Below are positions 3,701 to 8,199 of a stretch of 8,200 nt of DNA, piece by piece (the stretch's first letter is position 1; every line of letters starts with the position of its first letter). The position numbers and the translations under genes were made by a program. Source of the stretch: a virus (taxonomy: Duplodnaviria > Heunggongvirae > Uroviricota > Caudoviricetes); the IMG/VR virus record IMGVR_UViG_2534681978_000010; one strand, written 5' to 3'. The notes under the pieces are model-generated. The model made no database searches. It saw nothing but the letters and a program-made list of their open reading frames with translations, and was not told the origin of the DNA.

Positions 3701-6700
3701 AGACGCGACCGGACAGCCTTCATGTGTACCGCTGACACCACCGGATCACCATTTTTATCCACGGCATCAAGCAGCATCACAACCGCGTTTCTTTCTGTCG
3801 CGGAACGGTAAATTGCATCCGGATCGTGCATCAGTTCCGGTAGTCTCTCGATAACATCCATCGGCACCACATGTTTCACACCATTGGTGGCCTTACGCAC
3901 AGTATCGCGGGAAATAACCAGCGGCAAATCCGGTGCACCAAGGTGACGCAATACCGGCGGCGTACGCCCGATGTTTACCGTTAAATCCGTGGAGCGCAGA
4001 GACTTCATCATTCTGGCAAGGTCATCACGATAACGCTCGCCCTCACCTTCCGGCACTTTGAACGGATCACGCTTACCACTACGGGAGTACTGAGACGATG
4101 CGCCCGCGCCATCCTCACGCGGCGTGTAACCTTCCCGCACACGCTGGCCTAACGTACGAATAGTCTCGCGAACAAGTCTGATATCGTTCAGTTCCGTCGG
4201 CTTCAGTAACCCCGTACGACGCAGTACCCCTTTGACCAGGGCAACAACACGCTCCCATGCCGCCACGAATTTATTCGGCTGTTTCTCCGCCATATGTGCC
4301 AGAAATTCACCCGCCTGTACTTCCGGTGATTCCTTACCATAGGAAGCATCAACCTTACGCCAGGCTTCACGGATGGTGACGTTATCACTGTCGCGGGTTT
4401 TCAGCACGGTTTTGATAATCGTCTGATATTCCGCTGGTGTGACAACATGCTCCATGGCATGGTGAATGATCTCGTGACGCAGCTTCTCGCGAACGGTCCG
4501 CCCGTCAGGGATGTTATCCGCCACCAGGACAATTTCTCGTTTATCCGGACGATAGAATGCGTGCACCCTGCCGTAACCATCGAACAATTCACCCGCCAGC
4601 GCTTCAGCCTCTTTCTGTGACTTCACCACACGGACCTTCAGGTCACTGTCCTTAATGCCGCTCATCACGCCACGGGCAACCGCTTCAACCTGCGGGACCG
4701 GGCTGCCTTTGGCTTCCGCACTACGGTTAACATCCGAAATGAGATTACCTTCAGGTGTGCGGGTAACGCCCTTACGGGAATAAAACGCAACGCCCTTGTC
4801 CGTCTCACGGGTTTTCAGGGTGCGGAACAGGTGATCGAATGCCTCACGAATACCGCCATCCAGTTCCGCATTCGTCGGATAAGCCCAGGTGTTATCTGTG
4901 TTGTGCTCAGGTGCCTTACGGATATTGACCAGATAATCATTCTCCACGCCAGCCATACGCGCCTTATCCTGAACATAACGCTCAAAGGCACGTGCCGCCA
5001 TTTCAACATCCGTTGACCAGTACGGTTTTGAGCGCACCTCATCGAGAAGCACTGAACGACGCGGCATGTCACTGTTTTTAATGGCCTGAATCACACCTTT
5101 AAAAGCATCGTAAACCTCCTGACGTACCGGATATTCAGCATCAACATACCTGCCGTCTTTAAATATGCGCCTGACACGCTGTGCTTCCGTCATAAAGTCG
5201 CCACCTGACGTAATTTTCCCGTCATTGGAAACGTCATAACGACCAAAATAATTATCCAGAGAATGGAACCATTCGTGCGCCAGCGCACCCGGTCCGTTAC
5301 CTTTTGTCAGGTTGATTGCCACCTCACCCGGCTCATAGTGTGCTGCCGCCTTACCCTTACCACGGGCACCAAATGCCAGGCCAAGACGACCGTTCAGGGA
5401 AAGCGCTTTTGTCGGTACATTCAATACTTCCGCAAGGTCATGCAGCGAGTCATAAGCCCGGTTCAAATCAGCCTGACGACGCGGACCTTCCACGTAGTTA
5501 CCAAACTGCACACCACGGAAACCAAACGCATCACTGAACTGCTCCGGTGAAACATCCCCTTTACGGCGTTCTGGTCCGGTACGGTCGCGGTTGGTGGCGT
5601 TACGCTGCTCCTCACGCGAAATCTCCCGCATCTCCTTCACATGACGAACAAGCTCATCACGATGTGAATCAATGTACTTACGCGCATCACTGGCTGACTT
5701 AAAGCCACCTCTCACCCGCATTTTGTTTTTGCCATAAGCGATAAAAATATCGCCACTGCGGGTATTCCGGTAAACGTCAAAGCGGATTTTGTCATCCGGT
5801 GACGGTGCCGTTTTTTCATCTCCTTTCGCCTGTGACTTTTCCTCCAGCTCTGCAAACCAGACTTTCGCCTTTGTCAGTAATTCATCCCTGCTTTCCGAGA
5901 AAAAGAGGTTAGTCCCCTTATTGTCCTTATTGCGCAGTGAATAAAGTTTCTGTGGCGGATCGTAACGCTTCCCTCCTGCCGCCTGATACACACCCGATAC
6001 CACCCGATAAGCAGAAGCCTTGTCCATCTGTGAGGGTGGCAGAGTGCGTAACAGTTGCCAGGTATCCGCGTAACGGGAGGGCATTCTGCCTTCCATCCAT
6101 TCTGCGAGGCGTTTCGCGCTGACCGTTCCGTTAAGCATTTCCGATACACTGTGTCGTACTTTTTTTACGCTCTCCCCCCAGCCAGCCGTATTGTGTTTCG
6201 TCTTCGCCGGAATATCGCTACGATACAGCGCTATCATTGCCAGGGTGTCAGCATCAGCCCCTTCGCTCGCCAGTTTTGCGTAGTCCGGTTTCGGGAACAG
6301 TTTGCTCAGCGGCTGCGTGGCATAATCCCTGTCTTCCAGCGTTTTACCCAGTGTTTCAGCAAGCTGTGCATAACGGTGTTTGGCTGCCCCTTTAATTTCC
6401 TCGCCAAAGTCTTCAATTTTTTTGCCCCTGACTTCACCTCCGCGCACAGTAGCTTCCCTGTCAGTAGAGACAGTTGTTTCAGATTCAGGTGCGATTGTCT
6501 CAGGCTGCGGGATGTCACGATTTCCTCCGGCCTGTCGACGTACTTCTGCCTGCTGTGCGAGCTCAGGCAATGAGTTACGAACAGTTCGGGGAAGCTGATC
6601 AGGCTGAGGCATACGGACATTGTGTGTAATGTCCGGAGCCGGTAGCCCTTCACGTACCGGTGCTGTCGCGTTCTGCGCATCCGGTGACGGCAGACCACGA

Positions 6701-8199: not shown

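Follow-up and report, generated by a model that had tools for sequence, protein, structure and literature searches.

A probable flexible, partly structured hinge in the giant polyvalent protein of short-tailed Stx-converting phages

Ejection proteins of podoviruses, such as T7 gp14, gp15 and gp16, P22 gp7, gp20 and gp16, and the N4 virion RNA polymerase, are stored in the capsid, pass through the portal and act at the cell envelope early in infection. We know of no long hinge of the kind considered here in any of these proteins. TonB, with its proline-rich spacer, and TolA are proteins in which a membrane anchor is combined with an extended spacer.

Stx phages of the Sepvirinae carry a giant late gene, in the same position in each, whose product is called gp47 in phi24B, ORF80 (ECs1242) in Sp5 (VT2-Sakai) and gp68 in 75/02 Stx. 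phi24B gp47 is abundant in virions, is not seen by cryo-EM and has been proposed to be an ejection protein (bioRxiv 10.64898/2026.04.10.717836). Proteomics of phi24B recovered virion peptides from the region studied here, and gp47 PSMs were highest in the top gel slices. Infectious particles of Sp5 require ORF80, a protein of 2,793 residues, although DNA is packaged normally without it, and Mondal et al. read the gene as a tail-assembly factor and not as an ejected protein (PMC5155283). The concept of polyvalent proteins was introduced by Iyer, Burroughs, Anand, de Souza and Aravind in 2017 (PMC5512222). The published accounts of the Sepvirinae giant protein that were consulted name only LPD5, LPD1, MuF_C, LPD38 or COG1483 in it, and leave residues 429-949 undissected.

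The window, by which we mean the whole stretch of 8,200 nucleotides that was analyzed, derives from a short-tailed Stx-converting phage, and its DNA is 96-98% identical to that of 75/02 Stx and VT2-Sakai. Most of it is occupied by the giant ORF, which the window end cuts after 2,484 codons (Table 1). The true N-terminus lies beyond base 8200 and corresponds to 309 residues that are present in homologues. The full-length protein therefore has 2,793 residues, is the orthologue of the three Sepvirinae proteins named above and matches PHROG 616 over its full length. Residue numbers below are those of the ORF in the window unless full-length numbering is stated. The stretch that had been flagged from the sequence, residues 120-640, has 98-99.8% amino-acid identity to the Sepvirinae orthologues, and it corresponds to residues 429-949 of the full-length protein and is thus internal. 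Its supposed location directly after a membrane-active N-terminus is an artefact of the window edge, as the hydrophobic segment preceding it is itself internal. In complete Stx phage genomes, the giant gene lies downstream of the tail genes and lom, and adjoins the tail fibre gene, lom and other late genes.

Table 1. Positions of the giant ORF and its features in the window (residues in window ORF numbering; full-length numbering where stated)
Feature	Position	Strand	Residues	Remarks
Giant ORF	745..8199	minus		2,484 codons inside the window; cut by the window end
Glycine zipper GAALGAAMGAPFGAVAG, then YRGRRQ	7834..7902	minus	100-122	409-431 in full-length numbering
Acidic disordered lead-in	7756..7842	minus	120-148	
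Module A, helical	7462..7755	minus	149-246	R-[ED]-x-L-L-x-x-Y helix in two copies, with a long helix after each
Module B	7150..7413	minus	263-350	first half disordered, then a small alpha/beta unit (304-345)
Module C, conserved linear-motif island	6766..7086	minus	372-478	mostly low-confidence or disordered in the model
Motif PAFMRDPRFRGF (PAF)	7042..7077	minus	375-386	in homologues P-A-[FY]-x-R-(x)-D-P-R-x-x-x-F
Motif RLPAPGDIHPGQGYPLPGEV (LPAPG)	6853..6912	minus	430-449	peptide found in phi24B virions
Module D, variable P/Q/E-rich disordered tail with indels	6388..6765	minus	479-604	ends at KIEDFGEEIKGAAKH
First confident fold after the hinge	5977..6387	minus	605-741	helical, then beta; pLDDT 74-89 from ~610
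LPD5 domain	5527..5976	minus	742-891	Pfam PF18799, E = 7e-45
HEWFH zincin-type motif and LPD1 domain	4807..5277	minus	975-979 and 1052-1131	LPD1 by Pfam
MuF_C (PBECR-type) domain	3610..3879	minus	1441-1530	Pfam PF18819, E = 1e-17
LPD38 domain	1084..1701	minus	2167-2372	Pfam PF18857, E = 5e-46

Polyvalent proteins carry at least two effector or LPD domains, are encoded by phages or conjugative elements among virion or transfer genes, and enter the recipient cell together with the DNA. The giant protein agrees in the first two respects, with LPD5, LPD1, MuF_C and LPD38 matches that lie far over the Pfam cut-offs; as to the third, proteomics shows packaging in virions for the phi24B orthologue, whose ejection is a proposal. 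Like the proteins described previously (PMC5512222), it unites many effector-type domains in one chain, has a virion-gene setting and a metallopeptidase motif, and varies in domain order among its orthologues. The HExxH motif occurs twice, at residues 975 and 1242, and a sub-threshold CLCA_X match extends over residues 873-1128. In contrast to the globular domains of that survey, the conserved N-terminal module and the hinge match none of its LPD families in Pfam, and Pfam detected no domain within the first 1,050 residues of the full protein.

We consider it slightly more probable than all other readings taken together that the flagged region serves as a hinge, flexible but structured in part, in a polyvalent ejection protein that is packaged in the capsid. 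The hinge would connect the conserved N-terminal module (~430 residues, with a glycine zipper and a basic cluster at its end) to effector and enzymatic domains in variable succession, namely the DFGE domain, LPD5, HExxH/LPD1, MuF_C and LPD38. Its architecture would resemble beads on a string, in which disordered, net-negative P/Q/E-rich spacers lie between three elements: a helical module of hairpin type, the small alpha/beta unit and the strongly conserved proline/glycine-rich motif island. The composition of the region, its partial predicted disorder, its mosaic of modules, the variable length of the spacer and purifying selection across the region are all observed.

The composition of residues 120-640 is acidic and rich in proline and glutamine, as had been proposed from the sequence. 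The pI is 4.84, and 94 aspartate and glutamate residues compare with 68 lysine and arginine residues (net -26). Proline and glutamine account for 15.8% of residues versus 7.5% elsewhere (82 observed, 38.7 expected if the composition were that of the remaining protein, z = 7.2), and hydrophobic residues for 19% versus 30% (100 observed, 155 expected, z = -5.3). The mean TOP-IDP score is 0.209 in the region and 0.101 elsewhere, and of the 40-residue windows outside the region just 2.8% attain its mean. Every sub-segment lies beyond the charge-hydropathy boundary, on the side of disordered chains, and nowhere in the protein is a 50-residue window more negative than the one that begins at residue 131 (net -11). 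The acidity is nevertheless moderate when expressed per residue (-0.05, with 18% acidic and 13% basic residues). Also, the region is not of low complexity in the strict sense, with a Shannon entropy of 3.58 bits versus 3.73 elsewhere in 40-residue windows. DNA tandem repeats were considered as an origin of low complexity, and none were found in the region.

The proposal that the region is disordered holds for about half of it. In AlphaFold2 models, pLDDT is below 50 for ~273 of the 521 residues (~52%), including residues 434-532 and 555-608, but the helical module at 149-246 is predicted at 76-92 and the alpha/beta unit at 304-345 reaches 58-74. The sequence-only reading had named a confident, conserved fold, or strongly conserved hydrophobic core positions, as the observation that would speak against it; the strength of selection, the conserved motif island and the confidently predicted helical module go part of the way towards this. 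The underlying alignments are shallow (22 and 11 sequences), and low pLDDT in module C could thus hide folding on binding, or a fold invisible to AlphaFold2. The first folded domain had been placed at residue 640; in the models the fold begins near 605, so that its first 36 residues had been miscounted as disordered. The conserved KIEDFGEEIKGAAKH motif (the DFGE anchor; residues 594-608) closes module D.

Searches of the region with Pfam (E up to 10), NCBIfam, PHROG function labels and PDB sequences gave no informative match, and Foldseek comparison of a 760-residue model with the PDB gave none below E = 1. A BFVD fold search retrieved only the protein itself and resemblances of module B to SPOR and KH folds; these, like a resemblance to ring-building motifs, are weak and non-significant. 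The two R-[ED]-x-L-L-x-x-Y helices of module A were also considered as HeH/SAP-like elements. This assignment was rejected, as neither family nor fold searches favour it and module A is acidic.

The modules differ in how they are retained. The alpha/beta unit of module B has the pattern YF.D..SA....FRNA...GL.P.VVKKG..YAVE; module B is cleanly missing from the Salmonella protein P0078, and in the metagenome-derived homologue P0092 it has moved downstream of the LPAPG motif. P0092 keeps RLPAPGDIHPGQGYPLPGEV even though it is without the PAF motif. Module D is 23-34% identical to its counterpart in the Salmonella homologue, in a gapped alignment, and it shows 5-residue indels and, in phi419, a swapped allele with dS = 1.3. 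Module C is retained in prophages across the Enterobacterales. In proteins of Serratia, Edwardsiella, Pectobacterium and Yersinia no stretch is better conserved, and it gives the best match in remote homologues. Its identity to P0078 is 73%, versus 69% for residues 641-2484, the remainder of the protein, and its dN/dS is 0-0.05. The conserved positions are proline, glycine, arginine and aromatic residues, and not aspartate or glutamate.

Across the region as a whole, dN/dS is 0.14-0.16, equal to that of the enzymatic part and the rest of the protein; the phi191 locus (L004) was left out of this calculation because it is frameshifted in the deposited record. The weak constraint typical of a disordered linker is thus not seen. 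Such uniform purifying selection (dN/dS ~0.15) exceeds the expectation for a passive spacer, and counts against the hinge, as does the interpretation by Mondal et al. of the gene as a tail-assembly factor. The distance between the glycine zipper and the DFGE anchor is variable, as a linker would predict (474, 421, ~400 and 356 residues in four homologues), and it differs between genera by the loss or gain of whole modules. The earlier suggestion of a flexible tether or linker is therefore supported in that about half of the region is disordered, the spacer varies in length and a homologue is found in virions and has been proposed to be ejected. A plain linker or ruler, on the other hand, is contradicted by dN/dS values like those of the enzymatic part, by the conserved motif island and by the confidently predicted helical module.

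It is the N-terminal module, and not the cargo domains, that the hinge accompanies. In P0094 the DFGE domain occurs without the N-terminal module, the zipper and module C, whereas P0086 and P0088 keep the hinge with different cargo directly behind it. The family is narrow, because an exhaustive phmmer search returned just 20 clusters. A profile search with module C against a word-indexed database gave short fragments only.

The glycine zipper upstream of the hinge has four consecutive G-x3-G spacings (five glycines) in residues 100-116. At least three consecutive spacings (four glycines) are kept in five of the six homologues tested, and the pattern is retained in Salmonella, Serratia, Pectobacterium and Yersinia homologues and in P0092. 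Judged by its sequence, which is hydrophobic and conserved and has repeated G-x3-G spacings, this is a putative glycine-zipper membrane segment. A match to Gly-zipper_OmpA is weak (E = 0.94).

If the region is a hinge, its negative, poorly hydrophobic chain may remain unstuck from the packed DNA and could thread as a thin chain through the channel of the portal and nozzle at ejection. It would then tether the cargo domains to a membrane-inserted N-terminal part, and the conserved motifs may serve as docking or processing sites. We propose that, like the podovirus ejection proteins, the giant protein is stored in the capsid, leaves via the portal channel and acts at or across the envelope. Unlike them, it is a single chain of ~300 kDa in place of several proteins, and PDB sequence and fold searches gave no match to them. 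The succession of a hydrophobic segment with a basic cluster, a long, proline-rich, charged spacer of low hydrophobicity, and globular domains also resembles TonB and TolA. However, these proteins are not homologous to the giant protein, whose spacer holds conserved motifs and small folded units.

Other explanations for the region carry different weights. The disordered spacers might be cleavage sites for the protein's own HExxH metallopeptidase or for a host protease, such that the N-terminal membrane module would be released from the effectors after ejection. We regard this as unlikely, though worth bearing in mind. Metallopeptidase domains have been proposed by Iyer et al. to process polyvalent proteins into units (PMC5512222), the giant protein has its two HExxH motifs, and gp47 PSMs descend as a ladder below the top gel slice. 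However, the ladder may reflect degradation in storage, as the sample was 6 months old, and no cleavage site is defined. The virion signal is mostly in the highest-mass slices and includes peptides from both sides of the hinge, and therefore any cleavage must follow ejection. Cleavage of this kind is compatible with a hinge and does not exclude one. It is decidedly less probable that the segment is a structured assembly element, which would fold on the portal barrel, on the nozzle or on its own copies to build or plug the tail, and would not be a tether. Particles of a delta-ORF80 mutant package DNA, but are non-infectious and lack a tail-fibre antibody signal (PMC5155283), and both the strong purifying selection throughout and the confident prediction of module A agree with a structural role. 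Yet gp47 is not seen in the phi24B tail and capsid reconstructions, natural homologues do without modules A and B, and half of the segment has pLDDT below 50.

The remaining two explanations concern particular features of the region. Module C could be a strip of short linear motifs that docks the ejected protein on the host, in which D-x-P-A-[FY]-[LM]-R mimics the FtsZ C-terminal tail (DYLDIPAFLRKQAD) and is captured at the inner membrane by FtsA, ZipA or another protein that binds this tail, with RLPAPG...PG.G.P.PG as a second site. The likeness is to the FtsZ C-terminal linker and tail together, where a disordered spacer also carries such a motif, and homologues have DIPAYLRQD or DVPAFMRD where FtsZ has DIPAFLRKQ. 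Even distant homologues share an unchanged P-A-[FY]-x-R core, a pattern expected only 0.007 times per protein. Similarity to the FtsZ tail over 14-mers scores 35, 34 and 33 in Salmonella, Serratia and Yersinia, compared with a null of 19.4 +/- 3.6, and ~0.2% of shuffles match these scores. Cytoskeleton-targeting domains are, moreover, known among polyvalent proteins (PMC5512222). The allele in the window, however, scores 22, which is equalled by 24% of shuffles and is not significant. It reads E-Q-P-A-F-M-R and departs from the FtsZ-tail consensus D-[IVL]-P-x-F-L-[RK], in which the I374 and L378 positions are hydrophobic; the fit is better in homologues that have I or V. At the counterpart of FtsZ I374, a residue critical for binding of ZipA, FtsA, MinC and SlmA (PMC4117426), the allele has Q, and homologues have Q, I, V, T or S. 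In addition, the motif is internal and not C-terminal, its invariant part runs on into D-P-R-x-x-x-F, which is absent from FtsZ, and the resemblance was spotted post hoc. Because the allele fails both at the key hydrophobic position and in the shuffle test, we consider mimicry of the FtsZ tail, and with it this docking strip, to be improbable. The sequence-only reading had also raised DNA mimicry by a polyanion, as in Ocr or ArdA, which would block restriction enzymes; this appears to us extremely improbable. Like Ocr (T7 gp0.3) and ArdA, the segment is phage- or plasmid-borne and net negative; the C-terminal part, in which LPD38 lies, has a match to the DarB-like antirestriction PHROG 10089, and one Serratia homologue carries the source label "Antirestriction protein". 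In Ocr, however, 34 of 116 residues are acidic and 6 basic (PMC3439906), whereas this region has 94 and 68 in 521. Its charge density is thus -0.05 per residue versus -0.24, or five-fold lower, with many basic residues, which argues against DNA mimicry. Further, the AlphaFold2 models contain no rigid, DNA-shaped fold with ordered carboxylates, and the conserved positions noted above are not the acidic ones. Searches of the region against Pfam, PHROG functions, NCBIfam, the PDB and folds found no match to an Ocr or ArdA family or fold.

A hinge between domains is unsurprising on its own in a multidomain phage protein. The giant protein, however, takes up ~14% of the genome in the commonest Stx-converting phages and is essential, abundant in virions and invisible to cryo-EM, and the phi24B preprint itself poses its storage and role as an open question. 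The analysis removes an anti-restriction reading that was tempting but is unsupported. If mimicry of the FtsZ tail were nevertheless real, its effect would be to bring the entering genome and effectors into position, or to perturb cell division for a short time. Hinge modules A, B and D emerge, together with the cargo domains, as the swappable parts of the protein, and the constant part consists of the N-terminal glycine-zipper module and the hinge with its strongly conserved motif island; this partition supplies concrete targets for deletion and binding experiments.

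The region lies in a giant ORF whose DNA is that of short-tailed Stx-converting phages of E. coli and Shigella. These phages account for nearly all of the 268 phage-genome records that the window matches by megablast, at 96-98% identity across 93-97% of its length. Orthologues in complete genomes are longer than the window ORF: 75/02 Stx gp68 ("LPD5 domain-containing protein") has 2,793 residues, and the VT2-Sakai protein has 2,806 as annotated. By protein alignment, the first Met of the window ORF is Met310 of the 2,793-residue protein and is preceded in frame by ...TDRQK; the ORF is therefore truncated by the window edge (8197-8200 and beyond). 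The hydrophobic segment that the sequence-only reading had placed at the N terminus is internal in the full protein, where residues 120-640 become 429-949, and its supposed position is an artefact of that edge. Beyond the window, the protein begins with MAY..Q.RPE.Q...NR..LNIQQPGE, a motif kept in all distant homologues. In databases the region occurs mostly as short proteins labelled "partial", on 1-2 kb contigs of E. coli draft assemblies. Evidently the giant gene disrupts assembly from short reads; the probable cause is that several related prophages within one genome share it.

Two short ORFs accompany the giant gene. The first 30 residues of the DUF551 ORF match the C-terminal end of a dATP/dGTP pyrophosphohydrolase family (E = 1.6e-7), so that the ORF may be a fusion or a remnant. 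The 63-residue ORF has no Pfam match and contains two terminator-like hairpins.

Features of the window and of the hinge region (residues numbered by the window ORF)
Feature	Position	Strand	Residues	Description
106-residue ORF	23-343	plus		DUF551 domain, E = 1e-21
63-residue ORF	430-621	minus		downstream of giant gene; 75/02 Stx gp69, annotated hypothetical protein
Giant ORF	745-8199	minus		2,484 codons in window; contains region
Glycine zipper GAALGAAMGAPFGAVAG	7834-7902	minus		immediately upstream of region
Lead-in			120-148	acidic, disordered
Module A			149-246	R-[ED]-x-L-L-x-x-Y helix twice, long helix after each
Module B			263-350	core 304-345, a helix-helix-strand-strand unit
Module C			372-478	conserved motif island
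Module D			479-604	P/Q/E-rich tail with indels, variable among homologues
HEWFH (HExxH)	5263-5277	minus	975	
HEIIH (HExxH)	4462-4476	minus	1242	

The best-supported interpretation of residues 120-640 is a partly disordered, partly modular hinge in an encapsidated ejection protein. In Sp5, the orthologue ORF80 (ECs1242, 2,793 residues) is needed for infectious particles, and its deletion leaves DNA packaging and head morphology normal (PMC5155283). The phi24B orthologue gp47, annotated at 2,811 residues, is abundant in purified virions but missing from cryo-EM maps; it was proposed to act as an ejection protein stored in the capsid (bioRxiv 10.64898/2026.04.10.717836). Proteomics in the phi24B supplement gives the most peptide-spectrum matches (PSMs) for gp47 in the uppermost gel slices (2188, 1686, 1187, 1260, then falling). 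Tryptic peptides from modules B and C (FRDPNEVR, VRPDNRYFTDEK, GFTGDDTEVQAR, LPAPGDIHPGQGYPLPGEVAR and FTTTGEVK) were detected in these virions, and the hinge therefore belongs to the mature virion protein. An alternative-frame ORF at 7719-8042 (minus strand) corresponds roughly to a phi24B six-frame ORF (phi24B genome coordinates 50190-50591) that overlaps the giant gene in another frame; the 2 PSMs of ~71,000 assigned to the phi24B ORF are most likely noise.

The acidic, proline/glutamine-rich composition first noticed in the sequence is borne out. The region has a pI of 4.84 (9.41 for the rest of the protein) and 94 D+E to 68 K+R residues, a net charge of -26 (+41 for the rest), and at -0.05 charges per residue it is modestly acidic. 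Proline reaches 8.1% versus 4.0% in the rest, glutamine 7.7% versus 3.5%, and hydrophobic residues 19% versus 30% (z = 7.2 for the P+Q excess and -5.3 for the hydrophobic deficit). In the charge-hydropathy plot all sub-segments fall on the disordered side, and only 2.8% of 40-residue windows elsewhere attain the region's mean TOP-IDP score. Strictly, the description "low-complexity" does not apply, with an entropy of 3.58 bits versus 3.73 elsewhere and no tandem repeats in the DNA.

Disorder had been proposed for the whole region, and AlphaFold2 predictions uphold this in part. In a run on residues 1-760 with a 22-sequence alignment, pLDDT was below 50 at 100-146, 248-304, 346-349, 356-374, 385-394, 427-429, 434-532 and 555-608, and for ~273 of the 521 region residues. 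Excepted from disorder are a helical block (149-245, pLDDT 76-87) and a small alpha/beta unit (305-345, 58-74), both confirmed by a second run on residues 145-372 (79-92 and 67-72, respectively); from residue ~610 onward pLDDT was 74-89. Foldseek found nothing below E = 1 in the PDB, and the only match in a BFVD fold search was the protein itself.

Module boundaries were set by alignment with distant homologues from Salmonella, Serratia, Edwardsiella, Pectobacterium and Yersinia prophages. Module A is missing from the Serratia and Yersinia proteins. Module B is absent from the Salmonella protein P0078 and moved downstream in the metagenome-derived P0092, where its alpha/beta unit recurs after the LPAPG motif of module C (residues ~597-645); this unit behaves like a mobile mini-domain. 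Divergent look-alikes in Serratia and Pectobacterium proteins (P0085 ~719-760; P0088 ~855-897) belonged to the seed alignment and hence are not independent. Module C is whole in all full-length homologues examined except P0092, which has the LPAPG part only. Directly after module D, the conserved KIEDFGEEIKGAAKH motif starts the next folded domain, the DFGE domain.

The zipper GAALGAAMGAPFGAVAG contains five glycines in four successive G-x3-G spacings, and YRGRR follows it. Five of six homologues, across genera, keep three or more of these spacings in a row (four glycines), and the zipper is a candidate for the element of the ejection protein that inserts into the membrane. Downstream of the region lie LPD5, the HEWFH motif with LPD1, the second HExxH motif, MuF_C and LPD38. 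HEWFH falls within a sub-threshold CLCA_X-like match (NF041907, 150 bits versus a cut-off of 260), and both HExxH motifs are candidate metallopeptidases of this polyvalent protein, a class defined by Iyer et al. (PMC5512222). Homologues P0086 and P0088 retain the N-terminal module and hinge with different cargo directly downstream, and P0094 has the DFGE domain without the N-terminal module, zipper or module C. Thus, the hinge travels with the N-terminal module while the cargo varies.

The proposed linker role is supported in part: the spacer from zipper to KIEDFGEEIKGAAKH anchor varies in length, measuring 474, 356, 421 and ~400 residues in four lineages. However, among Stx phages dN/dS is 0.14-0.16 for the region (0.09-0.19 for the rest) and 0-0.05 for module C, so the region is not a spacer that drifts freely. 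Module C is 73% identical to the Salmonella protein, compared with 69% for residues 641-2484, 43% for module A and 23-34%, gapped, for module D; its amino acid sequence is also 100% identical to that of phage phi419 (L003) at dS = 0.20. When 1.84 billion cluster representatives were searched exhaustively with phmmer, only 20 matched, and in distant ones the best-matching stretch lies mostly in module C and its immediate flanks. The columns of module C that do not vary read P-A-[FY]-x-R-(x)-D-P-R-x-x-x-F and P-R-L-x-x-P-G ... P-G. The block that comprises module D, the following domain and LPD5 (~5527-6765, minus strand) differs from phi419 at dS 0.85-3.1 (61-71% amino acid identity), with flanks at dS ~0.2 (90-100%). 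The pattern resembles that of an allele exchanged as a block through recombination, one breakpoint falling where the conserved module C ends.

The suggestion that the region mimics DNA is rejected: acidic residues make up 18% of it and basic ones 13%, unlike Ocr, whose 116 residues include 34 acidic and 6 basic (PMC3439906), and conservation falls on P, G, R and aromatics rather than carboxylates. The rival reading of an assembly element that folds on binding would fit the tail phenotype of the ORF80 deletion mutant, but modules A and B are dispensable in nature. We consider it quite improbable that module C is a strip of host-docking motifs whose PAF motif (residues 375-386) copies the FtsZ C-terminal tail DYLDIPAFLRKQAD (PMC4117426). 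The PAF motif does resemble that tail, and reads DVPAFMRD in Salmonella, DIPAYLRQD in Serratia and DTPAYLRQD in Yersinia and Pectobacterium; 14-mer BLOSUM scores reach 33-35, attained by ~0.2% of shuffled proteins. However, the likeness was spotted post hoc, and the window allele scores 22 (24% of shuffles) and has Q at the equivalent of I374, which is critical in FtsZ. Moreover, the PAF motif is internal whereas that of FtsZ is C-terminal, and FtsZ has no counterpart to the invariant DPRxxxF extension. A processing linker is compatible with the hinge reading; Iyer et al. proposed that metallopeptidase domains cut polyvalent proteins into units after delivery (PMC5512222).

As a hinge, the region would join a constant N-terminal glycine-zipper module to a variable effector train. 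Its net-negative, poorly hydrophobic chain may avoid sticking to packed DNA, could pass through the portal channel and would tether cargo to a membrane-inserted N-terminal part, while its conserved motifs might serve as docking or processing sites. The protein family is already known; what is new here is the internal anatomy of the hinge, a detail of a known type.
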